Positions 2 to 62,288 of a DNA stretch of 64,000 bases are shown here, in pieces. Position numbers and translations under genes: made by a program. Below the pieces are notes generated by a model. That model saw nothing but the letters and a program-made list of their open reading frames with translations, did no database searches and was not told where the DNA came from. The DNA comes from Takakia lepidozioides (Eukaryota > Plantae > Bryophyta). Location: the NCBI GenBank assembly GCA_030704615.1, contig CM060732.1:21204001-21268000 (forward strand). Direction: 5' to 3'. Numbering within the stretch: the first letter of the stretch is position 1; each line of letters begins with the position of its first letter.

Positions 2-701
2 AACTTGATGCCACCCGCACTGCTCAAGCGTGCATTTGATGGGTGTGCAGCGGCCAGCACATCTCACAGTGGATAGCATTCTGGACACAGGGAGGCAGTC
101 TCAGCGTGTGAGACACGATGACCGTTCGCTTTTGGCAGTGGTCAACAAGGTGGGTCAACCACGAGCAGCATTACCTACACTGCTCAGCTTCCCAGGATCG
201 CATGCTTTCCGGGATAGTGGACCTGGCCTCCTGTGGGATGCTCAGTTGCAGCAGTTAGTGGAGCCTAATGCTGACGAGCGTGAGCGGGCAATGGGTTTTA
301 CCACTGGTACCACGACGGTGTCGTCTCTTTCTGAGGCATCATGTCGTCAAGTGTTGGGGCAAGCAATGGATCTCAATTGCTTGACCTGGATTATCAGCTT
401 GGCTATGGCTGAGCAACGCAAAGTGCGGAGTACACTTCCCTCGATGGTCTCTCTGCCTACTGAGATGGTACAGATAGTGAGTGGGGGCGAGCATGTGAGG
501 ACCATGGGGTGCAAGCATCCATGGCACACGTGGGAGGTGCTCGAGGTTCAGAGGGAGTTGGCAGCCAAGGTGGCGATGAAAGATGAGGTTGGGGATTTTT
601 CTCGGGTGGAGGAGGTCTTCAAGGATGAGATGATGGGGCAGGATGAGGCCTTGTCATTGACTGAGCAAGCAGGGAGTACTGCTCAAGAGGTTGCGGCATA
701 G
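2..701 (+). pseudogene. C-terminal part of a C5 DNA cytosine methyltransferase (DNMT3/DRM-like motifs IX-X) within the retrotransposon polyprotein
   Basis: EPNADERERAMGFTTGTTTVSSLSEASCRQVLGQAMDLNCLTWII (261-~395) matches the spacing of the DNMT3/DRM C-terminus (E-x-E-R-x-x-G-F-x4-T ... R-x-x-x-L-G-x-S/A-x). Frame 2 at the window start reads NLMPP.., as expected just after motif VIII (..FWTNL). Frameshift at ~41 and in-frame TAG at 699-701. Confidence 0.72.
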
Positions 702-865
702 CAACCATGGGACGCGTCCTCTACCTCTAAGTCTGCTGGACTTAAGGTTGCAGTTATGAAGGGCAATTGGGAGCCTGACATTGGACCTATTGTCACTAGA
801 GAAGAGGGACGACGTATACGGCGGTTCCTGAGGCTTACAGGAATTGCTTTGCCTCTCGTGCTACG

Positions 866-2428: not shown

Positions 2429-2574
2429 GGTGCATGCTCTGTGGGTCTGCCAAAGGGGCAGCCACCATGCTGGTGTGTGATCGATGCTCAAGGGGTTGGC
2501 ATATGGGATGCTTGACACCACCTCTTGAGAAGGTTCCTGACGGAGATTGGTTGTGTCCACACTGCTTGGGATAG
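2356..2574 (+). CDS. PHD finger (C4HC3) at the integrase C-terminus, separated by a 1-nt frameshift near 2378
   Basis: CMLC..MLVCDRCSRGWHMGCLTPPLEKVPDGDWLCPHC. Restoring one C in CACCTTCCC(C)ATGTC joins CAPCHLP to HVDDRVDP. Confidence 0.9.
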   Translation: MCTMSPSHVDDRVDPNLAVVPAGLRCMLCGSAKGAATMLVCDRCSRGWHMGCLTPPLEKVPDGDWLCPHCLG

Positions 2575-2831
2575 TGGCAGTGGACATGACTGGAGGCAGC
2601 TAACAAGACATGGGGCCAAGCTCATAGGAGTCAATACATGAGATCCCAAGCTCAAGTTCATAGGTTGCAAGACGGCGACTAATGATGGGGCAACTCTTGC
2701 ACCCGGCCTCTGATCTATCGAGTTTGAGTGTAGTAGGGATAGTGGTGGAGGACTTAGTGAGGCTATGGTCACTATCACATCTTGTGGCTACCTGGACTTA
2801 GAGGGACCTAAGCACCAGCTAGGGGGGCGAT

Positions 2832-4030
2832 TGTGTGGACTTGACTGCCATAGTGGGTAGCAGTGGCAGCCTAGTGACTGATTAGTTGTAGCCTAGTGGT
2901 TGGACTAGTGGCTGGACTAGTGGTGGACTAGTGGTATACTAGGTGTGGTATTGCAAAGTGTTGTGTGGTTTGGACAGCGATAGTAGTTGGTTAGCAAGAT
3001 GTATGCGCACGACAGCCGAAGTTATTTTACCACTAGTGTGAAACTAGCTAGGAAAAGCTCGTTTTTACATATTGACATTGGGATTGGACCAAGTGTCAAT
3101 CCGGGGCAAGGCCGATTTGGCCCTGGCTGAGTGGTATCTTTACGGCAAGCGCGGAGGACTCATCTTTCTCCGAGTTGAGCCTCACCGCGCCTAGCTTATG
3201 GCGCCGTAGTGTGGATACCCATGGCGTGGGGTGCACTTGGTTGACTTGTATTTGAGTGATGAGGTTATATATGCATGAGTTTATGCTTCAGCTTTGTGAG
3301 CTCGCCTGAGCTTGTGCTTGTATTCTTCGTCTTTATCTATTGTGTGGACTAGTGACTGCCATTAGTGGGACAGCATAGTGGCAGCCTAGTGACTGACTAG
3401 GTGTAGCCTAATGGTTGGACTAGTGTGGGGACTAGTGGTTATACTCGTGGTGGTGTGCACATGTGTTGTGTGGTTTTGGACAACGATGTAGTTGTGTAGC
3501 GATATATATGCGCACGACAAATATTTCTGCTGCACGTCGTTGGTGGGATGGTAAAGAAAATGTGAGAAAAATGGAGGATATTGGTGTCAGAAAGAAGCCA
3601 GTGTACCACTGCATTAAGTTTGACAACTAGGTTGTTGATGACACATTACATCCACCAAGGAGGGAGATCCATAATGGGGTGAGTAGATTTGGGGAGATGA
3701 AGGATGATGTCTGCCAAGACACTGTAAGCAGGTAAGTAAAAGAAATTTCTTCATAGCCACCACAGGTAGAAGCTGGCATTGCTTTTGGACTGCGCACCAC
3801 ACCCCCTGGATGACTTTTCCGGTCATCAAGGACCTTGGCGTGTGTTGTGACGGCCACATAGCCACCAAGTTGCAACCCCCTAAAGAACTTTCAGCTTTTT
3901 CCCTCAAAGGAAACCAATGACTTAAACCTGTGAATCTACACACCAGCCTGGCGGGTAGATTATAGGATCATGTAACTCACTGGCTAACCTGGCGCGTGCA
4001 TTGCAGCGTTTCCTGTGCGTTCTTCACGCA
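2832..4030 (+). repeat. Putative 3' LTR with an internal duplication (2832-3014 repeated at 3341-3519)
   Basis: Starts TGTGTGGAC immediately after the PPT. Candidate end CTTCACGCA at 4030 is only an imperfect inverted match to the start. Confidence 0.55.
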
Positions 4031-5249: not shown

Positions 5250-6240
5250 ACATATTATGTCCACATTATTCAAAGTGGATTTCATCCAAACATCTTCCTA
5301 CTCAACACCCTTGTTACCATGTATGCCAAATGTGGGAGCTTGAAAGCTGCATGTCAAGTGTTTGGCAAAATGTCTGATTGCAATGTGGTCTCATGGAGTG
5401 CAATGATCGCAGGATATGCAAAGTATGGGAGTCCTAAGTAGAGAAGCTTTTGGCCTCTATGAACAAATGAAACATGAAGGCCGGTTGAAGCCAAATGATA
5501 TAACTTTTCTATGTATCATGTTTGCATGTCATGTTGGCCTTGTGGATGAAAGGAGACACTACTGGGATTCTCTTAGTCGAGATTATGGCTTCACACTCCT
5601 ACAAATGAGCATTTTAGCTGCATGTTGGACCTTCTAAGGCTTGCAAGGCACCTGGAAGAAGTAAAGGACCTCATTAACAAAATGCCAACTGAATGAGATG
5701 ATGTGGTTTGGAAGGCCTTGTTTGGTGCCTACAGAATTCATGGCAATGTGGAGTTGGCAGAACGTGCAGCAACATGGATTCTCAAGTGGGATCAACATGA
5801 TGTTGCAAATGTTGTCCAACATCTATGCTGCAGCTGACAAGGGGGACGATACGGCAAAAGTACGAAAAATGATGAAGGTGAGAGGTGTGTAGAAGGAGCC
5901 AGGGCCCAGGTCGCAGCTGCATTGAGGTCAACAACGAGGTGCATATATTCATAATAGATGACAAAATGCATCCACAGATTGAGGAAATCCATGTTGCGTT
6001 GTAAAGACTGTCCAAGCAGATGAAGGAGGCTGGGTATTTGCCTGACACGAGTTTTGTATTGGTTAATGGAGAAGGAGCAAAATGAATCTTCTCTCTGCCT
6101 CCATAGTGAGAAACTGCCATTGCTTTTGGGCTAATTAGTACATCCCTTGGGACGCCTCTCTGTCTCATCAAGATATTTGCGTATGGTTGACGCACCAACA
6201 TTGAATAGATCTGCCATTATGGTTAGGGAAATACCATGTG
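5250..6240 (+). pseudogene. PLS-E-DYW pentatricopeptide repeat (RNA editing factor) pseudogene
   Basis: HIIQSGFHPNIFLLNTLVTMYAKCGSL, VVSWSAMIAGYA, WKALFGAYRIHGNVELAE, PG-box-like KEPG, MKEAGYLPDT, HSEKL(A)IAFGLIST; many stops and frameshifts. Confidence 0.88.
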
Positions 6241-15026: not shown

Positions 15027-15117
15027 ACCCTGGATTGACACTTGGGCCAATCCCAAATGTCAATATGTAAAAGCTAGCTATTTCCTAGCTAGTTTCACAC
15101 TAGTGGTAAAATAACTT
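15027..15117 (-). repeat. Inverted fragment of the Ty3 LTR (matches 3019-3106)
   Basis: CCCTGGATTGACACTTGGGCCAATCCCAAATGTCAATATGTAAAA...CTAGTTTCACACTAGTGGTAAAATAACTT is the near reverse complement of 3019-3106. Confidence 0.85.
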
Positions 15118-16194
15118 GACATATTCAATTTGTAAATGTCGGGATTGAAGGCAGCTTCCGCAATGCACAGGCAAGGCACAAACACCCAACCACTGTGCTA
15201 CCTGCTCAAGAGAAATTCAAGTCAAGGAAGTCAAAACGGATGCTTTCACAAATTGGAGTGTGTCTCCCTCAAGACAGAGAACAGAAAACCTTATTGAGAG
15301 AGGAGCAAACAACACAACGCCAAAAAGGGAGAAGGGCACAAGATATAGAGAGAAAACTTGGGCCTTTGAGATGCATTTTAGAATGGAAGTCGCCAGAACA
15401 TGGTTGTGGATAACTAGGATGGCACGCAAGTCCCTTGCAACCTGCAATGGAGGTCAGCGCTGTATTGCAACATTGTGGCAGACTGTCATTGTGCCCCATG
15501 CACTCTCGCTCATAGCAGGCCAGAAAAAAGGACGACTTCCATGTGTGTGAAGAATCTGCAGCCTTTCAGTCATCAATTAGCTGGGTGTGTCCCTCTTCAC
15601 CCATGAAACATCTACACTCATGTTTCATACATCTTCTAACTACGAAGACGCATGTCAGCTGTGGGGAAGGCTGCAGTACATTTACAAATGAGAGTCTAGC
15701 TTACAACAACAAGCTTTTAAGTCCCTCTACTCTATTAAGTGGACTGTGATCAGACCACTGCCAGCTCACCCCTATGATGGTGGTAAAACACCTCCAGAGG
15801 ATCATAGCTTCAATACAAGTGTACAAAGCGAGTGGTCTCAGTAAACTGCACCAATCTTCCCGCCCCACCCCCCCCTCCTGCCCCTCCCACACACACACAC
15901 AACCGGTCACCAACTAAACCCCCTCCTCCTTCAGAAATTGTCGATCTCCAATGTACAGTAGATCCAAAAATTTGATCTCCAATCTGTTCCCTGGGTTATG
16001 GACCCTTCGACCACCTTGCCAACCGGTGAGGCCTAGTGAAAATAGAGTGCCAGGGCAAGACAACAAGAACTTCAGACACCAGTACTGTCCAGATCCCACA
16101 TGGCGGCCAGAAGGGTAAGACGTCAGGGAGTTGTGGGCATAGGCCCTAATGAAGAGCACCTGACCAACCAAAGTGATTTGATTGCACTCTGCTC

Positions 16195-19100
16195 CTACCA
16201 GGGCCCTGTTAGGGTGCGCCTAAGACCATTCCGACAAGCCAATGGTTTAGGCATATGAACCATAGACTCGCAGTTCTGCAGATGAAACACAACGATCAAT
16301 CAGAAATCTAATTATCAGAAACTGAAAACAGATTCAAGAGTCCACTACAAAAGCAGCTTTCAGTTGGATTCCATAGCTTTACAAGACCTCGTAAGGTCCA
16401 AGACCAAGACGTGGTCGGGAGCAGTGAAATAACAACATCCTCTGACAGCATTCTAAAAAATCCCAAGAATGAGAAGGTAGCGACATTACTTCTACCAGAA
16501 GCCCACTAACTTCTGGACAGATTCTGGGAGGCGGGAACAGTATCTACAGTGTTTTTAGTACAGCAATCTACAACACTAGGAAGATCACATTTACGACTCG
16601 GAACAAAACCAACACATTCATCTTGCGAGGTGAAATGAACCAAAAAAAGGACGTTGGTTAGACAGTTCATTGTAAGCATACCCGTTTCTTCCTCCGTTCC
16701 ATGTCTTCCTCCTGTTGCAAAGATACCACAATCATCCCAAAGATACATCAGCATCTGCACATACACCTCTCTCTATCTCTAGGGCACCTGTGGATTATGC
16801 AAAAACTCTCCTCTCTTTGTCTTAGCTTCCTGTGGACATTAAATATCTTCTCTCTCTCTCCCTCTTAGCTACAAGGTAGTCCATCAAGCTGTAATTTCTG
16901 CAGATGGACGCAGTATGACCACCAAGTACAAGTCATACAGTAAAGTGTCATCTCTTTTTCCTCCCATCCCAAGTGAGCTAGGCCAAGAGAGATGAAAAGT
17001 GTAAAAATGCATAAAAACCCAAGCCACACAAAGGCATACAACAGCTCTTAAAATTCAGATTTTCCTACCGTTGCACTCATTGTCATACAACAAGAGGAGG
17101 ACCCAACCTACGATTGTTGGATCTCACAAACCCAAAGCAATTTAAGCCCCTAAAAGAGAGAAATCCTATCTGCTTGGTAAGATTCATCAACCACTTCAAT
17201 GATTCTACACCTCACGCTGGACCAACACCTGCATGACAGCAATCACTGGCAGTATTTCTGTCTGGCCAATGCACTACCCTCCTCAGAAAATTAGGCTCTG
17301 TTGACAGTTCTTCCACCACTTCTAGATCGAGCAGCCTATAGACACTGCACATGCATAATCCACCTCAAGCCAGTCGTCCCTTGACTGGCAAACAATCAAC
17401 ACATGCAAGACTCCCCACGACCAAAACAAAATCCATGGATGCGAGACATACATCGCCTGTGCATTGAAGACATGATAGCAAGCTTCTACACAGTACAATC
17501 CCCACTAATTCTTTTCTAAAGGATGGAGGAGGTTGAGATTTGCTTGCTAGCAAACAGCAGCATACGTACAGTTTTTCTGGTAGATACCTGCTGCTTCCTT
17601 AGCTTCGTGTTCTCCTCCTTCAATTGTGTAACTTCTGCTTCTAACTCCACTGTGTAAGCCTAGACACCACAGAACAAGCCCACAAATCACATTACACTCC
17701 ATTTCCTGTCTGTGAGGGTATAACATGCAAGGCGTCTGAGCATAAGCAGTTCAGCGAAGTTCACATTTATGCTCATGCTCATAAGCATATGATCTCGCAT
17801 CACAACTTGGATACGTGACCACCCAACCCTGCTAGGCAGAAATGGTTCAGGAGATACAGTGGAGGTGGATTGCAATTTAAGGTCAGGGGCGTCTTTACTA
17901 TCCAAATCGCATTTCCCCAGCCCTTGCCTCAAGCAATCTAACTTTCCGGTGAAGAGCAAGCAAGCCTACTTCAGGAATCAGTCTGCCCGGTAGCTAAAAG
18001 AGATTACATGTGCTGTCTGCTTGCTTGTTCGAATATATGCAAGCAAATCTACGAAAACTGCAACATAGATTGCACCAGCTCCCACCCGCACGCACATACC
18101 CACATAACGTAGATCTTCACAGTACCTGCTTTCGAGCACGTGAGCGGGCAGCTGACTCTCTATTCTTGATCATGCGACGCTGCCGTCTCTCCACCACTTT
18201 CTCCACTGGACCATCAGCGCCCCTTTTCCTCCCTCGCAGTGCTCCTTCCATCCCATAGTTCGCCGGGGAGAGAGTATGACCGTTGCCATTGCTGTCTGAG
18301 AAAGGACTTTGCGGGGACACCGGAGCGAGGCCCATACCTCCGTTTAGACCGGCCCCCAGGCCTGCAGCAGCTAGTTCACCACCCATCCCACCCGCCATGG
18401 CTTGCCCCATTCCCATGCCTGGTATGCCTCCCCTGGGTCCAGGACCATTCTGAACTCTCTTAGCTGCGGCGTTGGCAAAAGCATCTGCTTGTTGTTGATA
18501 TATTTGTTGCTGCTGGTGTTGTTGCGCCAAGCTTCTCATCCACTCGGCCTGTGAATTCGCGGGACAGATGCAGATGAGTCAGGGACACAGTGAAAAATGA
18601 TGCACGGAAATTTCTACTTAGTCCTCGGACATAATTTTTCTCGTGTCTTGGCTTTCGCCCATCAACATGCGAGCTGTGCCAGAAGCACGAGACCAAAGTT
18701 CAATCTAACCAAGAAAAACAGTAGAGCACTCAGAATCCCACGCAAGCATGAAAACACAATCACCTGCTGCTGAGAAGCTGCTTGATTCTTGTAGGCATCC
18801 AGTTGCATAGCATCAATACTGGCCTGGCTGGGCAGAGCATTGGCAGGAGAGAGTGAAAGAGTGGGGACAAGGGCGCCAGCCCTGTCCCCTGCTCCCTGCA
18901 TTTCTCTTCCCCTGTCTCCCAGTCCAGCTCCAAATGACCCAAAAGCTAGACTCGCGATCTCCACATCCTCTCTCACAACCCCCGCCTTCACCAGGAAATC
19001 TTCAAGAGTCATCTCTGCGAAGGTCGCCTGCCGCTGCTGCTGGCCAGTGCCAGGGCTGGCTCCCCCACCATTCTCAAGGTTTCCCTGTTGGATATCTTTC

Positions 19101-19483
19101 CAAACATCATCCACAGTTTTCCCACCGAGAGCACTCATAGTCCGTGGAAGAACGAGAGAGCCTTGTCTTTGCAGACTAGGCTGTCGGTTAATTCCAATAG
19201 CACCACTTGCCGCATCTCCGATGGCCTCTGCCATTGCTTGGCTCTCTTCAGCTGTCCAGATGTTCTTGAGAAACTCATCCATATTCATAGAACCGAAGTT
19301 CTTGCCAGGATCACTTCCCCCCATTGCATTCTGGAACTCGTCCAGAGTGAGAGAGTAGATAGATGCCTGTCTTGTGAGTGAGGGGAACCGGAGGCCTCCG
19401 CTTGCAAGAGTGGAGGGCACCATCCCATTGCTGGCGAGCGGCCGGGCAGGCGCTTGCTGTTGCATCTGTGGTTCCGATCCCAT
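16195..19483 (-). CDS. ABI5: Group-A bZIP transcription factor ABI5/ABF-like; exons 19483-18764, 18548-18126, 17659-17588, 16711-16682, 16275-16195 (441 aa)
   Basis: C1 LTRQASIYSLTLDEFQ/FGSMNMDEFLKNIWTAEE, C2 LQRQGSL/KTVDDVWKDI, C3 RQATFAEMTLEDFLVKAGVV, bZIP ERRQRRMIKNRESAARSRARKQAYTVELE, C4 LRRTLTGPW. All junctions are GT-AG and in frame. Confidence 0.95.
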
Positions 19484-20684
19484 TGGTTCTGGCCAGGAAG
19501 CTTGATGGCTAGTGTTTTCAGAAACTTGTTGGGTGGTATTTTCAGAGGCTAGCCTGCGTGCTGCCCGATCGCGGGCCCGACTACGGGCGTCTGGACCCGC
19601 CAGTGTTGTAGACTGTTGGAGAGCGAGGGCTCACAATGCCGCTGCCTCAATTGGTCAGCCGATTCTGCTCTGCAGCGCTAGAGACCGACTGCGGAGAGGT
19701 TCGTCAGATGGAATCACAGACAAATTGCATCATGAAGGAAAGAGATGCGAAAACACTATCGACTCTTTCCCAACTATCGACTTTTGGAGGTCGAGTAAGG
19801 AACCAAAAGCAAAGTAAGGGAAGACGAGGTATGCCGATATGGGAATTTTCGTATATCGCGAGCTGGAAAGGGTGCATGTAATGGTTTGCTTCTACCGGTG
19901 AAAGTAAACTCTGGAATAGCTCTGTGATTGTAAAGGCCTCGTTGTGTGCGTGAGTGAGAAGACAATGACAGAGTTCCTAGGCAGACGACTTCATCTCATT
20001 TGCTGCAAGCCGAGGAAGAAAGAACCAGAGGAACTAGAGAAAATTTGGAGACAACCTCTGCAGGCTCACAAAGCTACCCCAAGCCCGTAACCTGCCTACA
20101 CACAAGGAAGTTTTAAGAAAAACCCAGAAGAAACAAGGAGCAGTCGGAAGAAAGCCCCGCCTGGGAGGGACGGCCCTCCCCGCCTCAACTCTGGTCTTGG
20201 CGAGAGCAGGTAAGTATAGTGTGGAGGAAAAGCGCAAGCTTGTCCCGGCACAGCCCGAGAGTGCGAGCGAGAGACAGAGAGACAAGAGACTGATTCGGTG
20301 TCGCGCTCCCTCGCGGACACCTTGCCTTTGTTGCCTCTCCGGCCCTGCGCTTTACCACGGATGAATGTGTACTGTACCATGCGCGACGAATGTCGTTCCA
20401 ATATCCTTAGATGCGTGGATGATGATTGCGTACGCTCGATGAATGCATTATGAAATGGATCGCTTCATCCACACGTCACCTCCATTCCGTACCCACATCG
20501 ACGGAAAGTATGTCGCGCCACCACTTTACATCCATGGATGGATGCTTTTCCTCCCGGGCCCCAACTGCCAAGGATTTATAATAGAGGTCCAACGACCAAT
20601 GAGAAGGCCGAATCAAAGGATTTTGACCTTCAATAAATATCCATAACGACTCCGAATAGGACAACGAAAGAGTCATTCGAAAGA

Positions 20685-21177: not shown

Positions 21178-21740
21178 ACGTGGATGAATTAATAGCGGCG
21201 TGGATGATTAATCTTGATGAATGAATGACTAATTGTGTGGATTGATTGTCTGGATGGATGACTGAATAGCGGCGGGGATGATCTTCTGGATGGCTGAATG
21301 AAGGGAGGCGTGGATAGATTGTCTGGATGGATGAATAAATAGCGACCTGGACTGATTGTCTTGATGGATGAATGAGTAACGGCGTGGATTGATTGTCTGG
21401 ATGGACGAACAAATAGCGGCGTAGATGATTCTGTGGATGAATGGATGAATAGCGGCGTGGATTCATTGTATGGATGGATGCATGCAAAACGGCCTGGACG
21501 GATTGTCTGGATGGATGCATGGATAGCGGCGTGGATTCATTGTATGGATGGATGCATGCAAAACGGCCTGGACGGATTGTCTGGATGGATGCATGGATAG
21601 CGGCGTGGATTGATTGTCTGGATGGATGCATGGATAGCGGCGTGGATTCATTGTATGGATGGATGCATGCAAAACGGCCTGGACGGATTGTCTGGATGGA
21701 TGCATGGATAGCGGCGTGGATTGATTGTCTGGATGGATGT
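21178..21740. repeat. TGGA-rich minisatellite, ~37-bp monomer with a 74-bp dimeric higher-order repeat
   Basis: GCGGCGTGGATTCATTGTATGGATGGATGCATGCAAAACGGCCTGGACGGATTGTCTGGATGGATGCATGGATA occurs three times, with more diverged monomers to the left. Confidence 0.92.
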
Positions 21741-27711: not shown

Positions 27712-30572
27712 TCACACTGCACGATTAAATCTCTTAAAGGGAATTGCTCGAATCACCAATGTTTGGTACATTGCTGCGAGGGCGGCCCCAACGAATGGAC
27801 CTACCCAGAAGATCCACTGCACCACCATAGCCAACCAAATCCATTTGGAAGGTTAGCAAAGCTTCTTTTCTCTCCCTCTTTGCTACAAAAGAAAATTTAA
27901 GTAAGACAAACAGGCTACACATCCACACAAGGGCTCTACAGGTCTCTCCCTCCTGTCACGTTCTTCGGCAAACCCAAGCTAGTCTAGACATTTGTCACCC
28001 AGGCGTTCAAATTGGCTGGATTCCCTTTTGATGTCATGGATTGTCATGTGCCAGGCCCTAAGATCGATCGTAAGAGACGACACCACAAGACTCGCTGCAC
28101 TTCAGTCATTGTAGACTGCAGGAGTGCTACTACCTGTAGGTATTGTAAGAATTCACATTCTGCCTAGCACAAAACAGGACAAAAAGCCTCTTTTCCCAGG
28201 GTCAGATTACGTTGTCCTTTGAAGATTAGGGCGCTTAATAACGACGTGTTGTAGGCAGACTTCAGGAACTCGCGTAGATTGCTCATATCTAGATAGGAAT
28301 TCTAGAAGAGAGGCTAAGTCAAAGAGATTTTGGTGACCAGTGAAGGTTACTTACATGTTCATCCCAGACGTTGTCTCTGTTAAAGATGATGGCAGCGCCC
28401 AGGCTCCGGGCGGGATTGATGCCTGTGCCTGTGATGGGGATTGTGGCCAAATGCACCAAAAAGACTGCAAACCCGATAGGAAGCGGCGCAAGCACCTGTC
28501 ATGATGTACAAGCACGCGAGGTACCTGATGAAACTCTCTCTCTCTCTCTCCGATCCTTCTCTGGTCCTTAGTTCTAATGCTTAAATGCTAGTGCATGGCA
28601 GTAAGCTCATTGGGCTTTCTGTCGACGTTACAAAGCTGATTTATTTCTGTTGTTATTCCAGATCCATTTTCTGATCGACTCGGCTCCTCTCGTCCAGATA
28701 TCAAATCACACCACCCACTTTGGCCTGAAGTCATCCCTCCCTGGGAGTTGGTTCTGGTCTTCAAGAATAGTGTTAGGCAGTGTCGATGTACTGGCTCTCA
28801 CATGCACATATCATAAGGTACAATACAGAGGTTCCATATGGACAGATTGTCGTAAATATAATGCCACTTAATGCAGTTATGCCGCTTTGTCATATGATGC
28901 ACGACCGTAGACACACACAAACCATACAGACTCAGAGGCACCAAGCAGCTAAAAAGAATCAGTGTTCCTTCTCGAAAGTGTGAGTTACATCTGTGTCTCG
29001 CTCGTCCTTGTACTTAGCGAAGACGATCGTGAAGGGACTTTTGCTTACCTCGAGATAGATCTCTCCCCCAACCCCGGGAACTCTAACAGTACCAGCTGAG
29101 TGTATGTCTCTGATCATCCTTACTGACCCCATCCTAGCCGCAAGCCTAAGTACTTGCATGAAATCATGTATGTGTTTCCGACTATCCAAGCGGTGCTGCA
29201 AACAAATGTTCCAGCCAAAGCAACGTATACTCGAGACTTACCGGCACATGAGAATCGCGGGCTCTACGCTTTGCATCAGTGGCAGAGAAGACGGTGTACA
29301 CCAGCACAAATGTTCCGACAATCTCTGCTCCAAGACCACTCCCCCTGGTGTAGCCGTGGGAGACAGTATTGGCACCGCCGCCTGCGGTCTCATAGAAGCC
29401 TGGCTGGAAGCCTTTCACTACTCCCGCTCCACAGATCGCACCCAAACACTGACATATGATGTAAAATATCGTGCGCGGGAGCGATACTTTCCTCGCCAGG
29501 AACAGCCCAAACGTTACAGCTGGATTGATGTGTCCTCCTGCATGCAGTGAAGATCGTGAGATTGTGATCTTTGATGGCTTCAGATCGCTGCAGAAGACAA
29601 AATAACTAGTGCACAACATGAAGCCCTGGAGAAGCCAAAGTACGGTTTCAAGGACGTTTTCATGCATGCGAGAGAAAAACTTCCTTCTGAAGAAAGACAG
29701 GAAAAATTTAACGGCGTCCACAAAGAAAAAGAAGGTATGTAGAAGAAGCTCCAGATGTAGCAGAGTCTGGAAGAAACCCAGAATGCTTAGGGCTAACCTT
29801 GAGATTAGTTTAATCCGTGGCTGCGAGACTACTTTCAGATCGATCCAAATTTCAAGATCATGTGCCCCATCTGGATGCTCGAATGGGCTGGGGAAGTTCA
29901 GACTTCAGACACTTTGTTCTGAGCATAGAAGAAAGCTGACAACAAGGTCCGATCAGGATGAGCATAGTAGAGAAACTAGTAGGTGAATTAGAGACATTTA
30001 CAATTTGCTGTTTGTCGCTCACCTTGCACATGATGCGGCTATTTGCAAATTCTTGAATGGAGGAGTTAAAAATCGCTCTCAAATTTTGACTCCACCTCCA
30101 GGGGGTAAGGGCAGTTCATCTTCAAATTTACAAATTCACACAGATGAGCTTAAATTGAGTTGTGGAAGCGCAACTGATCAGTCCTTGACCTTCCCCTGGA
30201 TGTGTGAACACACTGAGTTAAAATACCTGATATCCCAGCAGTGCAATAGACGAGGGCAAAAATCATCCCACCAAACGCCCACGCAATGCCTTGAATGCCG
30301 ACACCACTGCAACTTCCGAGTCGTACATTACCCATCACAGTGTTGATGGTGATGTAGAGGAAGAGAAAGCTGGCAATGAACTCAGCAATCCCGGCCCTCC
30401 AGAACGACCATAATCCAAACTCTCTGCTGTCATACATGGGAGTAAACACTGGCTCGGCGTAGTCCCTCTCCGCGGTCTGGGAAACAGTACCCAATGGTGC
30501 TCGCTCTCCAAATTTTGTAGCTGCGCCGACGGCGATATCATCTTCCTCGTCTCCCGTGACGTGATCTGCCAT
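27712..30572 (-). CDS. PIP1: Plasma membrane intrinsic protein PIP1-type aquaporin; exons 30572-30227, 29537-29242, 28495-28355, 27816-27712 (295 aa)
   Basis: [29 protein letters not shown], ar/R filter F-H-T-R, RDSHVP, C-terminal VIRAIPFK. Internal exons are 296 and 141 nt, typical of PIPs. Confidence 0.95.
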
Positions 30573-44590: not shown

Positions 44591-45039
44591 GTACACATAT
44601 AAAGCTTTGACGTGAGCAATGGTCGCTGCCAAGATAATGTTTTTCAAACATGTGAAGGATATTGTAGTGATGACAAACCAACAAGAGACAGCAGCGAAAC
44701 GGATGCATCCCGGTTCATTACTGATAGTAGCAGTGGGTCCATGATTATGGAGTCTGGAAGATCTGCAGATCTCCAATGCCAACCTTTGAAGAAATTCCTA
44801 CTGATCAGGCCTCTCATCTCAAATACCACAACGCAACCTGCTGCAATCATGGAGAAGCTTTCACCCACTGAATCAGTACCTTCAATCTGGTCACCCACTT
44901 GCTCCTTCAACCCCGACGGCCACGCAAGCAACACCCCCCATGCCTGCAAGGTCTGATCAAACTTCAATATCAAAATCCATGGAACCACTTGCACATCAGC
45001 CTACAACTCAACAATCTTCCCTACAAACCCTACCAGCTT

Positions 45040-46600
45040 TGTCACTCCAGCACGTGACACCCAACCACAGCACGTTTGTGTGCATTTGCAATGCGTGTGC
45101 AAGCCTAGCAATTCTGGAAGAGGGCAAAGATGTCCATGACGACAGTGACAGAGCTGGAATCGTACCAAATGTCATTCTGAGCAATACCCTTGGGGACATA
45201 TTGCCAAATGTGAGTGCAGCGAGGATGCACAGGTAGGTCTCAACACTATGGCTGAACGAGACAAGGTGTCGCGGGGCAGTTGCAGGATTGAGTGGATAAA
45301 AAACGGCAGATCCCAGTCCATGAAAGTCCATCACCAAAAAACAAAAGTTGAGGATACTATCCAAAATATTTCTTTAGTGATATATAATGGTATACTGAAC
45401 ATATTTAGTAAAGAGTCATATCCCAAATATTAAAGATATAATTTATTAAATATTTTAATTTATTATTTAGAGTTTACAAAAATTTGTCAATATGCCACCT
45501 AGCGATAGAAGATTATAGGTTTTTATACTTCTAGAAAACAAATGACACCCAAAATCCAAAAAACAATATGAGCTATGGACTTTTCAAAAAATGCTTATTT
45601 TTTGGACATATATTAGTCCATATGATTCAAATGACAAATGATTTTGCCACTTCAAATCCATACCTATGATGTGGACTAAAATGACCACCTTATGTCCAAA
45701 TTTCAATGGAATTGACCAATGGCACATAGGACTTCTTGAGTCCATTCTAATTTCATTCACCGCGGAAACAAGTCCACTCTAAGGTCATCAGAAGTCCATA
45801 ACTGTGTCATTTCTTATCGGATTCATGATTGGAGAGTTGCTATGGGTGCGTATTGAAGCTAGGAGTCCAATGACATATATATTTTCTGGTTTTAATGAGT
45901 TAATTTAAATTCAATTGATGACACAATCAATTGCAATCATCTAAAACTGTGCTGGTAACGTCCATTTTGGTCTAGTCAACCCTACATTCACCCCGTGGAG
46001 CGCGTTGCTTGCAGAGTATGCACAGCAAGGACGTGGTACAGAGGCCTTGGACACCAATGATCAGATGATGGGGGAGGGGTGAAGCCCAACAACACGATGT
46101 ATGTGTGCATTTACAATGCTTGTGCAAGCCTGACAGCCCTGGGAAAGCGCAAAAAGATGCATGGTGACATCTTCAAAGCAGGAGTTGTACAAAATGTCAT
46201 TCTGAACACTTCTGAACAATACCCTGGTGAATATGTATGCAAAATGTGGGTGCATGGAAGATGCAAAAGGAGGGTTCGACACTATGGTTGAACGATATGT
46301 ACTGGGATCATGGAATGCGATGCTTGCAGGGTTTACACAGCAAGGACGTGGTATGGAGGCTTTGGAGACCTATGATCAAATGATGGGGGAAGAAGAGAAA
46401 CTCGATTAGAACACGTCTATGTACATTTGCAATTCCTTTGTAAGCCTGGCAGCTCTGGAAAAAGACAACGAGGTCCATAGTAACATTGTCAGAGCTGGAA
46501 TTGTACCAAATGTCATTCTGAACATTACCCTTGTGGATGTATATGGCAAATGTGGGTGCTTCGAGGATGCTCACAAGAGTCGCCCTGGGTACTAATCGGA
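45040..46600 (+). pseudogene. PLS-class PPR pseudogene fragments interrupted by an AT-rich insertion (~45285-45985)
   Basis: VTPNHSTFVCICNACASLAILEEGKDVH..GIVPNVILSNTL; MYAKCGCMEDAKGGFDTM..SWNAMLAGFTQQGRGMEALETYDQM. Confidence 0.8.
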
Positions 46601-47939: not shown

Positions 47940-49060
47940 TTAAGCGACCGTTAATACTACGGTTGTTATTTCTATTTTTTATGAAAAACAAGCAACCGCC
48001 ATTACTGCGGTCGCTTTTATTTCCTTTCATTTTGTGCAATATTGCGGTCACTTCTATTTTGTATATTTTTAAATTTAAGCGACCGTCCGTATGGCGGTCG
48101 CTATTGTTTTTTATTTCAAAATATAATGTGACTGCCGGTATGGCGGTCGCTTCATTTGTTAATATATTTAAAATAAAACGACCGCCAATATGGTGGTCGC
48201 GTTTATTTTAAATATTAAAAAAAAAACGCGACCGCCAGTAAAGCGGTCGCTTTTAATCTTTATATTTTCAACTTAATATATATTTAAAATTGACGCGACC
48301 GCCGGTTTGGTGGTCTCAAATATTGTATTGTTTTAAAACCAGCGACCACCGGTGTGGCGGTCGCTTTTATTTTCATATGTCGTTTTTTTTATTTAGATAA
48401 TTTTAAATTTACCGACCCCATATGGCGGTCGTTTGTTTTTCTATATATTTTTTAAATTAAGCGACCGCCCAATGGCGGTCGCTGTTTTTTTTTTTTTTTT
48501 TTTTTTTAATTATCCGACCGCCATATGGCGGTCGCTTGTTTTTTTTATATATTTTTGAAATTATCCGACCGCCATGTGGCGGTCGCTTGTTCTGTACATA
48601 TTTACAAAATTGTGCGACCGCCAATACGGTAGTCGCTTGTTTCTTTTATAAAATTAGGCGACCGCCAATCTTGTTTTTTCTTAAAAATAAATTGAAACGA
48701 CCGCCAAGATAGCGGTCGCTATTTTTTTTTTAAATTCAAAAATAAAGCGACCGCCAGTGCGACCGTCAATCTTGTTTTTTTTTTTTTTTAAATTGAAGCG
48801 GCCGCCAATTATGGCGATCGCTATTTCTATTTTAATTTCGAAAAACAAAACGACCGCCATAATTGGCTCGCGTTCATTTTGTTAATTTTTAAAATATATT
48901 TGCCACCGTCACCGTGTCGGCGACGTGGCTGCTTAAGTGGCAGTATTTTACCTGGTACTATTTTTATCAGAATATTCCTTGAACCTGACGTGACGGAGGT
49001 CCCGTCAGCGTCAGGTCTGACGTAACCTATGCTGACGGACGGACGTGACGCTGATAACCA
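47940..49060. repeat. Array of GCGACCGCC-N3-6-GGCGGTCGC palindromes separated by AT tracts (transposon subterminal region)
   Basis: About 20 copies. The array ends in GACGTGACGCTGATAA, the same motif as at 42970. Confidence 0.8.
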
Positions 49061-51089: not shown

Positions 51090-54000
51090 GCTTGGAAAAT
51101 GCAAGGAGAACGTTCTGCTGCTCAGATGGATCCCACCTGGCAACTGCAGCATAGATATTTGATAGCAACACATAAGTCGCAACATCCTGTTCATCCGATG
51201 GGAGGATAGATGTTGCCGCACATTCAGCCATCTCCACATTGCCATGGATTCTGCAGGCACCAAGCAAGGCCTTCCACACCACAGCATCTGGATTGATGGC
51301 ATTTTATTAATCAGGTCCACTGCTCATCCAGTTGTCTGGCACGTCCAAGCCTACCACACTCGTTTGGCCATATGGTCGAACACTCCCTCCACATCCTCGA
51401 TGCACCCACATTTGGCATATATGTCCACGAGGGTATTATTCAGAACCACATCTGGTAGAATTCCAGCTTTGGCGATGCAACCATAAACCCTCTGCCCTTT
51501 TCCAGGGCTGCCAGGCTTGCACACACACTGCAAACGCACAAACCTGATGTGGTCGGGCTTCACCCCTTCCCCCATCATTTGCTCATACGTCTCCAAAGCC
51601 TCCTCCCGGGCCCCTGTTGTGCATACCCTGGGAGCATCGCACTCCACGACACCACATCTCATTCCGCCATATTGTCGAACACTCCCTTTGCATGCTCGAC
51701 GCTCCCACATTTGGCATACATGTCCACCAGGGTATTGTTCAGGATCACATCTGGTACGATTCCAGCTCTGACGATGTCGCCATGCACCTCTTTGCCCAGA
51801 AATGCCAGAAGAGGCATTGTGGACTCCCTCTCTTGATCCTCTTCCAGAGGCTGTGGTCATGGTTGAGGTGCCTGATTTTATCAATTGTGCCGCTGCAGCT
51901 GTTGCTTTTAGTTGACCATCTACCCATGTAGGTTTATTGTAGCTATTGATCCACAGGGAATCATAGGTAATCTTGTGCTTGAAATCTGGCCCTCTTGGAT
52001 GCACACTCTACCCCTGCTCCTTCAGCTATCCATGCCTCTGCACAAATCATGCATTCATCCTTGTCTTCCTGCTAACAACTGACAATAACAGCCTAGATTT
52101 GTTCTAGGAAACACCCAACTCAGCTTATCACACTAGTTCCTATGCTCCTTGCGTTTGCTACTCTCTGTAATCCAACAGGCATCCACCTTTTTGCCTCAAT
52201 TGTCCCACCATCGACTGGGGTCAAAAAAGTATTCTTTCCACAGCTTCTCCTCATCTCTCTTACCTTTTTCTGGATACTTTGGCAGTATCATGTCAAAGTC
52301 ACTCCAACTATCAAAGGTTCACTCAACCAGCTAACTTGCAGAATTCAACATGAAAATTTAGGGCCGGTTCTGATAAGAAGGAACCCTCACTCCATCCCTG
52401 CTCCTTCAGCTATCCATGCCTCTGCACAAATCATGCATACATCCTTGCCTTGCTGCTAGCAACATACAATGACAGCCTAGAATTCTTCCAGCAAAAACCC
52501 CCGCACTTAACATACATGTTGACAAACACCCAACTCAACGTTCCTATGCTAATTGCGTCTGCTACTCTCTGTAATCCAATAGGCGTCCACCTTTTGCCTC
52601 GATTGTCCCACCATTGACTGTGGTCAGAAAAATATTCTTTCCACAGCTTCTCCTCATCTCTCTTACCTGTTTCTGGATACTTTGGCGGTATCATGTCAAA
52701 GTCACTCCAACTATCAAAGGTTCACTCAACCAGCTAACTTGCAGAATTCAACATGAAAATTTAGGGCCGGTTCTGATAAGAGGGAACCCACACTCCATCC
52801 CTGCTCCTTCAGCTATCCATGCCTCTGCACAAATCATGCATACATCCTTGCCTTGCTGCTAGCAACATACAATGACAGCCTAGAATTCTTCCAGCAAACA
52901 CCCCCGCACTTAACATACATGTTGACGAGGGTGCTGAGGAGAAAAACATTTGGCGTGAATCCACTTTGGATAATGTGAGCGTGCACCTGCTTTCCAGCTT
53001 CCAGGCCACCTGATGCACTTATGCAAGAGACAGACATACGTTTCTGAATCTGCTGAAATGCCTCCTTGGTTTAAAGTCTGTAGAGCCTCTTTCAGTCTGC
53101 CTGCCTCACAAAGCATCTTCACATGCCCAGAAGTGCCAGAAGAGGCATTGTGGACTCCATCTCTTGATCCTCTTCCAGAGGCTGTGGTCATGGTTGAGGT
53201 GCCTGATTTTATCAACCGTGCCGCTGCAGCTGTTGCCTTTAATTGACCCTTTATCCATGCAGGTTTCTTGTAGCTATTGATCCACAGGGAATCATAGGTA
53301 ATCTTGTGCTTGAAAACTGGCCCTCTTGGATGCTTCTGTACACACACTCTACCCCTGCTCCTTCAGCTATCCATGTCTCTCCACAAATCATGCATTCATC
53401 CTTGCCTTGCTGCTAACAGCTGACAATGACAGCCTAGATTTGTTCTAGGAAACACCCAACTCAGCTTATCACACTAGTTCCTTGCTCATTGCGTCTGCTA
53501 CTCTCTATAATCCAACAGGCATTCACCTTTCTCCGGTGAGAAACATAAGTCCTTGCCATTGAACACGAGGTCAAGTGGATGTCGTACCTGGCGGAAGGTT
53601 TATTGGACAAGGAGGAAGTCCAGCCTTCTCATCCTTTCTTTTGGTGTTCCAGCCAGCAGCCCGTGGAGCAAGCTGATTGCAAGTAGCGGTTTCGTCTACT
53701 GGTTTCTTGAATCAAGTTTACAAAGACGATTCAGTTGGTTGCGTATGTCATGTCACTAGTCTTGTTCTGCTATGTATCTGAGGATAAGCCACAAAGTGAA
53801 CTCAACTGAGCACCTGGGACCTTAGCAAGGGACTTCCACGAATTTACCGAGGTTAAGCGGAGATACAGCTTAGATTTGTTCTAGGAAACACCCAACTCAG
53901 CGTTCCTATGCTCATTGCGTCTGCTACTCTCTGTAATCCAACAGGCATCCACCTTTTTGCCTCGATTGTCCCACCATTGACTGTGGTCAGAAAAGTATTC

Positions 54001-54620
54001 TTCACAGCTTCTCCTCGTCTCTCTTACCTGTTTCTGGATACTTTGGCGGTATCATGTCAAAGTCACTCCAACTGTCAAATGATGTAGCTACGTTTATCCA
54101 TATTATCAGGGCATGTGTATGAAACATTGATTAGAAGTTGATAGCTGTTTAAAGTCTGTAGAGCCTCTTTCAGTCTGCTTGCCTCACAAAGCATCTTCAC
54201 ATGCCCAGAAGTGCCAGAAGTGGCATTGTGGACTCCCTCTCTTGATCCTCTTCCAGAGGCTGTGGTCATGGTTGAGGTGCCTGATTTTATCAACTGTGCC
54301 GCTGCAGCTGCTGCCTTTAGTTGACCATCTACCCATGCAGGTTTCTTGTAGCTATTGATTCACAGGGAATCATAGGTAATCTTGTGCTTGAAATCTGGCT
54401 CTCTTGGATGATTCTGTACACACACTCTACCCCTGCTTTGGCATACATGTCCACCAAGGTATTGTTCAGGATCACATCTGGTACGATTCCAGATCTGACG
54501 ATGTCGCCATGCACCTCTTTGCCCTTTTCCAGGGCTGCCAGGCTTGCATACGCATTGCAAATGCAACCAAACGTGATGTGGTTGGGCTTCACCCCTTCGC
54601 GCATCATTTGCTCATACGCC
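51090..54620 (-). pseudogene. Rearranged, tandemly duplicated PPR (PLS-E) pseudogene cluster with an N-terminal OSB-type PDF motif
   Basis: EKLWKEYFSDHSQWWDNRGKK | (N/K)HPR(G/E)PDFKHKITYDSLWINSYKKPAWVDGQL, followed by VKMLCEAGRLKEAL and PLS repeats ending WKALLGACRIHGNVEMAE..YVLLSNIYA. The module recurs about three times with frameshifts. Confidence 0.8.
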
Positions 54621-58711: not shown

Positions 58712-60559
58712 TAAACGGTTGTTTCAAAACTTCCAACTATGCAACGTTTCATCTCCTTGAACATGAACAGACACCACCAAAACGTCTCTGGCATTATGAT
58801 TATCAAACGCAAGTGCATGCACAGGCGTCCAAGCGGTTAAACGGAGTGGAAGCGGTCTGCCATGAGTGGTTGCAGCTTCTCTCGGGTGTTCACTCTTAGA
58901 ATATGTCAACGACTTGCAGCAATCGGAGTAATGGTGTATGCGTTATTACGTAATACAGAAGCGGGAGATAAGATGAAGATGAATACTAGATATTCTTCTT
59001 CAAAGAAAATTATGCTAAGATCTGAACAAGCAACGGGCGACGAATTTGTGGAACAACCGTAGTATCTGAGGGTTAGACCATGAACAAGTGCCACGATCCC
59101 TGATCCAAATGATAGCAGCAGTACCAAGCTAAAAAGAAGAAGAAAATTTCACACATGATCGATGAACACCAAGTCCTGGTGATGCATAACCAGTGAAGCT
59201 TCAGGAAATACACTGCCACTTCACACCCATAATCGTCTCCCTCTTCCATTAAGACGAGCGGTGTAGATCAATGCGGGAGACCAAGCTTCAAACATCTAGC
59301 TGGCCCCTGTGATTCATCGTGCCACCACCTATTTCTAATGACGCCTGAATTATAGAAAGCTGTGACTATTGAGTTTTCAAGGGCCACATACCCCTTCCTC
59401 TTGATTTTAGTCTTCGTTCGCAAACAACTGGTCTTATCTCCAGTTCCGCTCACCCACCGGTCAATGATAGTATTGTTTTTTTTTTTTTTTTTTAAATTGC
59501 AGGCCAAGTACTCTCTTCCCACCGCTGGAAAGTAATAAGTACTAAACTGATATGATCCAGCCTATTATACAAGACGTTTGAGATGGTAAGCTTCACTACA
59601 AGAGATGAGCGTTTTTAGGACTACGGGTTTGGCGGAGTCATAAAAACTGCACTAGATACATGACTACAGAGCGCTGAAATGCATTACAGTTTTAGTTTTA
59701 TGACTTTGTAGTAATGGATATCACTACATGACTCCGGAAAGTTAGGGAGCATTGGTCAAACATTGTTGACCATGATGACAGGGATGGTTTATATGACTAG
59801 TGTGATATGTTTGACTACACGTGGACGATGTTTCATGGAATCTTATGACTCCATGACTGAAGATGGTTTCAGAGCTCTATTTATACGACTACATCACTAC
59901 ACGTGTCATTTTGAAGGCACATATAATGCAAATAAGGTTGCCCATTAGGTTTTAAAAAGTTAAATTTTTTGCTAATAAGGTTGCCCATTAGTGTAATCGT
60001 GAACAGAAAGGAGGGCTGGGACTTGGCGTCTTTTTGTCTCCTACGCCACACCACATAGCTGAGGGATGGAACGCGATGATAGCAGGATATGCAGGGGCGT
60101 GGGATGGAGGCGTTGAGCAAATGATGCACGAAGGAGAAGAGGAGGAGGAGACGAGACGAGGACAAGCGAGCTCGCCGTTCTTGGGAGAGTCAGCTTGGTC
60201 TTAGCAAGCGTGTTTCAATCTCTGACTACTCATCTACGCCGTAGTGGTTCGATCTGACAGACCAATCCAACATTACCTGACTACAGACACAAGCAGCACA
60301 CACAAGAGGTCATCGGTCAAATCCTCCATGGGTCAGGACAGGTCAAGGACAATGTGGTAGGGCACCTTCTTCTTCAACCTATTTCAGCCTGTGTTGCCCT
60401 CTCATCAGACTCGGCCGCAAGATGCATATTGAATTCTGTAAGTTAGGTCGTTGGGTACATCTGTGGTGGTTTGGAGTGACTCACAGGAGACTCTGGCATT
60501 CGGAAGAACCTACCTTTTCTTTCACTCCAATGTCCTCCAAAATGGGCAAGTTACTGCCA

Positions 60560-60940
60560 GTGTGGCAGCAGGGAAGTATCCAAAAACATATAATAGAGGT
60601 GAGGAGAAGCTTGGGGTGAACACTTTCCGACCCCAATGGTGGGACAATGGAGACAAAAAGGCGAATGCCTGTTGGACTACAGAGAGAAGCAGATGCATTT
60701 CAGATTGTGATAAGTAGGGTTGGGGTGTTTTGGGGAAGAACTCCACACCAGTATGGTTGGGGTGTTTGCTGGTAGAATTGTAGGCTGTCAGAGGCATGGA
60801 TAGCTGAAGGAGCAGGGATAGAGTGTGGGTCCACATTCATCCAAGAGGGCTGGATTTCAAGCTCCACATTACCTATGATTCCATGTGGAAGGATAGGTAC
60901 AAGAAACCTACATGGGTAGATGGTCAACTGGAAGCGGCAT
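60560..60940 (+). pseudogene. More diverged, opposite-strand copy of the OSB-type PDF module
   Basis: KYPKTYNRGEEKL..QWWDNGDKK and HPRGLDFKLHITYDSMWKDRYKKPTWVDGQL; the intervening intron-like sequence also resembles the 52-54 kb copies. Confidence 0.75.
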
Positions 60941-62288
60941 GCTGTACTATATGTCATTCCAGAGACTGTCATTGTTGGTCCATGTGTTTTACAACAATGC
61001 TATCAATATAAGACTCCTGGTTCGCATTGGAAGCTCAATCCCTGCAAGTTCATTGTGTGTGAAGCTCAAACTTGCGATTTGAAGGATCTTGTAGCCAAGT
61101 TCATTCAACCGGAAAGGAGAAATTCTGAAAGCTCCCAAATTTGATGTGGGCAAGCTTATGGAGGTATGACTTAGCTTCCCTCCTCTAATGTAAGTGTTGG
61201 ATAAGTTTCATTTAGTGTCGACCTTCACTGCATATATTGGCTCTTTTCTTGGCTGGTTTCATATTTTCTTGGCTGGAATGCTGTTGGTTGGCTTCTTTCA
61301 TTTCACGTGTGTAGTGGAAGGGGAGAAGTACTTTCCTAAGTTCTGCTGCAACAATGTCTTTTTCCAGCCTAGATGTTTTCGATGGATACAAATTGAAGTG
61401 CTTTGAATGTTGCTGCAATACTATAATAAAGTGGAGGGTGCTGAATGCAGTTGGTCTTGCTTCGTGCAGGCATAATCCAGGGAAATGTGGACATAGCTGA
61501 AACCCCATGATAGCATTTCCAGAGGACGGTGTGGATGGCCTCACAATCCAGCATGCAAAATCCATGACAATGTGGAGCTGGCTGAATGGGCAAACAGGTT
61601 AAGTGGCGAACAAGCCACGTCACTGGTACATAGTTGCATGCTTACATAGTACATGAAAGCGTACTATATGTCATTCCCGAAATTGACCATGTTGGTCTAT
61701 GTATTTTACAACAATGCTATCAATAAAAGACCAATGGTTCGCATTGGAAACTCTATCCCCGTAAGTGGCTTGTGCGTGATGCTCAAACTTGTGATTTGAA
61801 GGATCTTATACCCCAGTTCATTGCAGAGGTCATTGGAAAAGACATTGAGAAGGCAACAGCCGTTATCTATAATCTACAGATCCCCTTCAATTTGATGTGG
61901 GAAAGCCGGCTGGCTGGAGGTCTAGTCTCACTTTCACTCATCTAATGTCAGTGTTGTATCCATTGCAATGTGGAGATGTTTGAAACAACATTGGAGCATT
62001 TCCAGAGGATGGTCTGGATGGCCTTTCGTGGCGTGTGCCGAATCCATGGCAAGAAAACATTGCAGGCAAACCCATGGCAATGGTACCAGCACGGGTTGGT
62101 CCAAAGCCAATTGCAACAACAAATGAATAAAGGGTGCTGAAAGGAAAGCACTCCATAATTGATCATAAAATCCAGTGTCCAAGCATGATATCTTAATGGG
62201 AATGCGAAGGGAGTGTTACCACCTTAAACTATCATGCATGGTCTATAACTGGAGTGCACAAATCGCGCATATCTAATCTTCATCATCC

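Follow-up and report, generated by a model that had tools for sequence, protein, structure and literature searches.

The DNA analysed here is a 64-kb stretch of the Takakia lepidozioides genome (hereafter the window), the left end of which lies inside a decayed Ty3/gypsy element read on the + strand. Positions 2–425 hold a partial DNMT3-type C5 methyltransferase (DNMT), its C-terminal 40%. The first piece (2–43, frame 2) is cut by the window edge and matches the end of the motif VIII region in relatives; after a frameshift near position 44, the remainder (45–425) comprises the target-recognition region, motif IX (276–299) and motif X (345–371). Only motifs IX and X lie whole inside the window, and the remaining motifs were read from relatives. 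Downstream are a poorly conserved ORF1 tail (426–698) with a conserved HPWxxW motif at 516–533; a conserved in-frame TAG followed by CAA CCA (699–707), a candidate programmed readthrough site by the CARYYA consensus (PMC2754532); a pre-RT linker (708–854) with a WEPDIG motif at 768; and remnants of reverse transcriptase (RT; ~855–889) and of the end of RNase H (890–943). These are followed by an integrase (1163–2236) with an H2C2 zinc domain (PF17921, E 1e-15) and an rve core (PF00665, E 3e-13), and by a PHD finger at the end of pol (2431–2574; PF00628, E 2e-12), which in this copy is in a different frame from the integrase.

The copy in the window is dead. Its frame is broken near 44 and again near 831, within the linker, and RT/RNase H has lost ~1.25 kb through two deletions of ~570 and ~680 nt, measured against the related locus L002. 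In run X12, a contig connects window positions 327–854 to 888–1250 with ~1.28 kb in between, and one contig from the organism extends from the DNMT end across the absent RT part into the integrase region. In the host organism's DNA the family is very abundant, with 35,924 contigs of run X1 matching 3.7 kb of the element, a figure that is not a copy number. The observed/expected CpG ratios of the element (~0.5) and of the rest of the window (0.57) are alike.

At its 3′ end the element has a polypurine tract (2819–2830), which also precedes repeat B1 in related loci, followed by terminal repeats B1 (2831–3015), A2 (3016–3341; assigned by homology of plan, its 5′ partner lying left of the window) and B2 (3342–3520), which is ~80% identical to B1 and ends in ...CACGACA, the 3′ end of the element. 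Seven loci have long flanks on both sides; only four of them show split direct repeats in the order A1...B1-A2-B2, which take the place of two identical full LTRs (identity 86–92% for A and 91–94% for B). The window contains the B pair. Outer ends of the form TGTC...GACA with 4-bp target duplications were seen at three independent insertions (L040/L043, L051 and L052), and the duplications point to integration by a DDE integrase. The TG...CA ends, polypurine tract and 4–5 bp duplication that characterize Ty3/gypsy elements are all found in the family, the window containing the 3′ end only. By eye, none of five loci has a TGG-type tRNA primer site directly after A1. Elsewhere in the window, a 90-bp piece on the − strand (15028–15121) begins TGTC and matches the opening part of repeat A (3019–3106) at 93% identity; it is likely the truncated 5′ end of another family copy.

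The rest of the window includes host genes and other repeats. The first exon of an ABI5/ABF-type bZIP host gene lies at 18662–19630 (−); the best named matches of this ABI5-like gene (18665–19630) are from Pohlia, Physcomitrium and Sphagnum at 58–60%, above those from gymnosperms, lycophytes and Marchantia, which by itself suggests a host that is probably a moss only distantly related to these three. Inspection of translations by eye identified a PIP-type aquaporin exon at 29182–29904 (−) and decayed PPR (PLS/DYW-like) pieces at ~5300–6200 (+), ~45000–46600, 51300–54600 and 60500–61000, among which a repeat family is scattered. Self-comparison revealed tandem repeat arrays at 21181–21739 and 48040–48899, with offsets of ~74 bp and ~95 bp. 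The right end of the window (62602–64000, −) holds what we take to be CACTA/En-Spm-like transposase ORFs.

The methyltransferase domain and its relatives

A preliminary description made from the letters of the window had pointed to motifs with C5-methyltransferase spacing in the ORF ahead of the pol remnant, and both motifs lie where it placed them in the frame-3 ORF at 9–701: ERERAMGF at 276–299, with the T four residues on, and RQVLGQAMD at 345–371. When query residues 9–425 were compared with 783 candidate proteins, 74 gave matches at E≤0.001, the strongest of them at 2e-69; PF00145 is present in 34 of these proteins. The similarity of the fragment to DNMT proteins, and hence the presence of the motifs, is therefore not chance. 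The matched proteins include named ones from Marchantia polymorpha, Calypogeia fissa, Riccia sorocarpa and three Sphagnum species, and one 92%-identical match reaches the motifs upstream of the window fragment. Within a full-length relative, HMMER aligned ERERAMGF...RQVLGQAMD with EMERVFGF...RQRLLGRSW of DNMT3A, a stretch that is weak when taken singly. The Pfam check proposed in the preliminary description thus succeeded for the relatives and failed for the window fragment by itself, which had no Pfam match because motifs I–VIII sit to the left of the window; against the PDB the fragment gave a single match at chance level (E 0.64).

The relatives in Marchantia, Calypogeia, Riccia and Sphagnum have DNMT motifs I–X, with motifs I, IV (PC), VI (ENV), VIII (RxR), IX and X in unrearranged order. 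To obtain further copies, we scanned metagenome contigs with a DNMT query, which yielded 66 loci; because the loci were picked by this query, copies without a DNMT could not appear among them. The motif I Phe is kept in 48 of 48 loci and the motif VI Glu in 56 of 59, and the upstream catalytic PC motif, the absence of which would have argued against the original proposal, is present, with the motif IV Cys kept in 53 of 55. The two motif VIII Arg residues are kept in 37 and 48 of 63 loci, and we infer that their losses are mostly changes of the CpG-decay kind. Of 144 more distant representatives (P0275–P0418), 61 have GWECQ as motif IV and 39 have GWPCQ, the GWECQ relatives keeping the cysteine and swapping the usually invariant proline.

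The assignment to "DNMT3/DRM" in the preliminary description can be narrowed: the DNMT3 half stands, and the DRM half does not. DRM enzymes have a circularly permuted motif order, which is absent here, the motifs of the relatives running from I to X normally. A 31-sequence profile searched against the PDB had DNMT3A as its best match (E 3e-20), with DRM at 4e-9 and HaeIII at 1.6e-6; both this profile and a full-length Marchantia relative placed DNMT3A first and DNMT3B/C next, with DRM and bacterial enzymes far behind. The closeness to DNMT3 over DRM, DNMT1 and bacterial enzymes is a similarity rank and not a phylogeny that includes host enzymes. A structure model of one natural domain (pLDDT 82, pTM 0.85) is predicted to fold like DNMT3A: Foldseek gave DNMT3A/B as the best matches (E 7e-18 to DNMT3A), and the superposition on DNMT3A/B had a Z of 25.6 and an rmsd of 2.7 over 260 residues, compared with a Z of 22 for HhaI. 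Between families, the DNMT had a dN of 0.28–0.32 and a dS of 1.66–1.90 (5 pairs), and the part in the window had a dN of 0.18–0.27 with saturated synonymous sites (6 pairs), so that with dS near saturation the selection ratios are rough. The linker had a dN of 0.69 and a dS of 0.88 (1 pair), and the RT, with a dN of ~0.16–0.20, is under tighter constraint than the DNMT. These values point clearly to the DNMT domain evolving under purifying selection, and the domain is probably catalytically active on cytosine.

The preliminary description had also proposed that a Ty3/gypsy lineage of land plants carries a DNMT placed between its protease and its RT, and this is borne out by the bryophyte relatives and by the metagenome loci. 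The family order is gag, zinc knuckle, protease, DNMT, stop, RT, RNase H, integrase and PHD. Among loci with enough DNA, the DNMT is preceded by a protease in 36 of 45 and followed by an RT in 48 of 51; the full order from gag and zinc knuckle through protease, DNMT, RT and RNase H to integrase was found in 18 of the 66 loci, the others being cut short or deleted, and a PHD is present in 18 of the 66. The family thus has the gag-PR-RT-RH-INT order of Ty3/gypsy elements, of which the window retains the RT/RH remnant followed by INT. We conclude that this is almost certainly an element-borne DNMT3 lineage. Some proteins (P0139, P0092 and P0290) fuse DNMT and RT without a stop. Public databases annotate two others from Marchantia and Sphagnum, P0010 and P0023, as DNA (cytosine-5)-methyltransferase genes, yet these are transposon ORFs. 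H3K4me3-reading PHD fingers have a cage Trp; the PHD of the element (window 2431–2571; L052:9923–10057) has a Gly at this position, which would fit a reader of unmethylated H3K4.

The domain is spread widely in the green lineage, a search with it returning 236 clusters (50% identity) at E≤1e-30. A Closterium member has the order protease-DNMT. The chlorophyte members, from Hariotina, Haematococcus, Monoraphidium and Scenedesmus, carry the DNMT downstream of RNase H and before the integrase where one is present, and in P0069, P0114, P0134 and P0289, which are Gypsy-PHD elements of chlorophytes, RNase H and integrase have a DNMT3-like domain between them. Literature searches not aimed specifically at this RNase H-DNMT-integrase arrangement found no paper on it. 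In a quick tree of 92 rows, which left out host DNMT3, Klebsormidium and 13 near-duplicate or gapped proteins, the window grouped with the liverwort and Sphagnum rows in a clade of 20 (SH-aLRT 98), and a separate 41-row clade (SH-aLRT 99) was nearly all of the RNase H-DNMT-integrase type; the tree bears on the placement of the window and not on the origin of the domain. Our protein searches for relatives found no named Klebsormidium protein.

The stop codon between DNMT and RT

The single TAG that the preliminary description had placed in the DNMT frame is at 699–701, and the frame carries on beyond it to the pre-RT WEPDIG motif at 768. Fifty loci span the region from the end of the DNMT to the beginning of the RT; the two domains share a frame in 39 of them, and the other 11 are frameshifted. 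A stop occurs at the homologous place in all 39 in-frame linkers, and no other stop position in the linker was found in more than 6 loci. Because related linkers have the same stop, we conclude that the TAG in the window is not a product of decay. A conserved stop 3′ of the DNMT means, by the predicted reading frames, that the domain shares ORF1 with Gag and protease. Among the named proteins of liverworts and Sphagnum, several terminate 74–78 residues past the DNMT block, and for liverworts the stop context was inferred from these protein ends only.

The sequence around the stop is also conserved. After merging near-identical loci (L040 and L043 are a single insertion counted twice), 56 distinct copies were left, of which 12 lacked the anchor; TAR-CAA-CYN was present in 41 of the 44 anchored ones, and the exceptions were two copies with two stops in a row and one that is frameshifted. 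The stop and the following 6 nt have an identity of 0.67–1.00 across five families versus 0.30–0.60 in the flanks. The context in the window, TAG-CAA-CCA, agrees with the tobacco mosaic virus (TMV)-type CARYYA consensus. The exact CAR-YYA is found in the window, L023, L030 and L039, that is, in only 3 of the 44 copies plus L039; in the largest family the stop is followed by CAA-CCC, which departs from CARYYA at a single base, and by an in-frame ATG two codons after the stop, an ATG that neither the window nor L023 has. RNA folding 3′ of the stop gave no consistent structure (z −0.7 to −2.2 in the 5 tested). In TMV, CAR-YYA is essential for readthrough, which is ~10% in vivo, as described in the available text of PMC2754532. 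From its position and context, we consider it likely that Pol is made by readthrough of the conserved stop.

Proposed role of the element-borne DNMT

The best explanation of the whole, in which we have moderate confidence, is a bryophyte Ty3/gypsy element whose ORF1 encodes Gag, protease and DNMT3, whose Pol arises by readthrough of a conserved stop and whose DNMT acts on the element's own cDNA. ORF1 would yield Gag-protease-DNMT in excess, such that the DNMT is likely made and packaged at the level of the capsid protein, and RT, RNase H, integrase and PHD would come from occasional readthrough. The protease would free the DNMT within the particle, and the DNMT would then methylate new cDNA there or at integration, so that a new copy may arrive already marked like host heterochromatin; the PHD of the integrase may read chromatin and guide the choice of integration site. 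We lean towards the element's own cDNA or insertion site as the main DNMT target. This model originates with SymbioDIRS-Dnmt3 (de Mendoza et al. 2018, PMC5890265, in its main text), and self-methylation of cDNA is put conditionally here because the Klebsormidium Gypsy DNMT, when expressed in yeast, gave no methylation, a result its authors deem inconclusive (PMC5890265).

A different target is possible, although we consider it unlikely: the element-borne DNMT may be real and free ORF1 product may act on host chromatin, either methylating DNA of the host or of competing elements in trans or binding it as a decoy. The position of the domain in ORF1 would make DNMT in excess over RT and integrase, beyond the need of one cDNA; the family is abundant, by the 35,924 matching contigs of run X1; and the host DNMT3 of P. 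patens performs de novo and CHH methylation, according to the available text of PMC10952607. However, a benefit in trans would reach non-carriers, and a domain with such a benefit would be hard to retain by purifying selection in many families.

Somewhat less probable still is that Pol is obtained from transcripts in which the stop is spliced out, or from ribosomes that reinitiate at an ATG further downstream, either of which would leave the DNMT in ORF1. Ogre elements splice across a stop to make pol, and some Marchantia gene models (P0011, P0037 and P0006), which are predictions only, join both sides of the stop; the in-frame ATG of the main family would suit reinitiation. However, the linker retains its frame with one conserved stop, and the six bases past the stop are far better conserved than the flanks, which argues against both routes. 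The lack of the ATG after the stop in the window and in L023 likewise argues against reinitiation, and a run X12 contig that spans the stop unspliced argues weakly against splicing, X12 being only guessed to be RNA. Finally, that a host DNMT3/DRM gene fragment lies beside a Gypsy remnant by accident, or that the motifs arose by chance, is vanishingly improbable: although the window fragment by itself has no Pfam match and its 5′ part is outside the window, the domain is intronless, the organism contig connects the DNMT end, by way of the RT part, with the integrase region, a Pfam search of the relatives found no DUF3444, the mark of host plant DNMT3 (PMC6453930, in its available text), and the recurrence of one domain order across dozens of loci, and among named proteins from four bryophyte genera, rules this out.

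Readthrough of the stop and a DNMT directed at the element's own cDNA thus remain our preferred reading. More tentatively, an ancient green-lineage PHD-Gypsy clade may have taken one captured DNMT3 from algae to land plants and shifted its place in the polyprotein, to give RNase H-DNMT-integrase in chlorophytes and protease-DNMT-RT in streptophytes; the CARYYA stop of the bryophyte elements would make the DNMT a capsid-level cargo, with many copies per particle, that pre-methylates cDNA and may add to the host methylome. These elements carry the type of enzyme that hosts use to silence them, and with the family in Marchantia and mosses, the question reaches genetically tractable land plants. 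The conserved stop predicts that DNMT is packaged with Gag and is far more plentiful than RT or integrase. In the proteomes of Marchantia and Sphagnum, several entries annotated as "DNA methyltransferase" genes are in fact ORFs of transposons.

Comparison with known systems

DNMT-bearing retrotransposons have been described in dinoflagellates and one charophyte alga (PMC5890265, main text). Our search of the literature, with subscription papers, figures and preprint supplements outside it, likewise found DNMT3 retrotransposons of algae only and none of land plants. Marchantia, Physcomitrella and a PHD are unmentioned in the main text of PMC5890265, and the terms methyltransferase, PHD, Marchantia and Sphagnum do not occur in the available text of Neumann 2019 (PMC6317226). 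A recent preprint (bioRxiv 10.64898/2026.05.21.726589) names "streptophytes (Gypsy-DNMT3)" once, its available text being free of bryophyte, Marchantia, moss and land plant, and PMC12344493, in its available text, refers to Gypsy-DNMT3 only as streptophyte.

Several of these systems differ from the moss family in the type or place of the enzyme. The EpiLTRs/DAM-LTRs share LTR-borne DNA methyltransferases and a chromatin reader, but their DNMT is a DNMT4 sister accompanied by DAM and a chromodomain, unlike the DNMT3 type found here (available text of bioRxiv 10.64898/2026.05.21.726589). Host plant DNMT3 (PpDNMT3a/b; Yaari et al. 2019, PMC6453930, as far as its available text describes it) has the DNMT3-type catalytic domain in common with the element but a C-terminal DUF3444, whereas the element's domain is set between protease and RT. 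SymbioDIRS-Dnmt3 is likewise a retrotransposon-borne DNMT3, and it methylates CG de novo in yeast; it is a dinoflagellate DIRS element, whereas the moss family is Gypsy, with 4-bp duplications as with a DDE integrase (PMC5890265, main text).

With respect to the stop, the exact TMV-type UAG-CAR-YYA consensus is shared by the window, L023, L030 and L039, and rice gypsy elements cited in PMC2754532 include readthrough candidates (both by its available text). The stop of the moss element, known here from its sequence alone, comes after protease and DNMT, unlike a stop at the gag/pol boundary. A literature search for CARYYA together with retrotransposon found no paper.

The closest known system is KnitGypsy-Dnmt3 of Klebsormidium nitens, which according to PMC5890265 shares the Gypsy domain set, an unrearranged, intronless DNMT3 under purifying selection, and the DIRS-like repeat plan, in which A1 and A2 flank the ORFs and two B repeats flank A2. 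In KnitGypsy-Dnmt3 the DNMT is in the RT/RNase H ORF, whereas in the moss family a conserved stop separates gag-PR-DNMT from RT (PMC5890265); the hosts are a charophyte alga and a land plant, respectively, and the two elements were compared by description rather than by Klebsormidium sequence. A Gypsy element with DNMT3 and split repeats was already known from KnitGypsy-Dnmt3 (PMC5890265); what would surprise a specialist is the conserved candidate readthrough stop together with a spread from chlorophytes to bryophytes.
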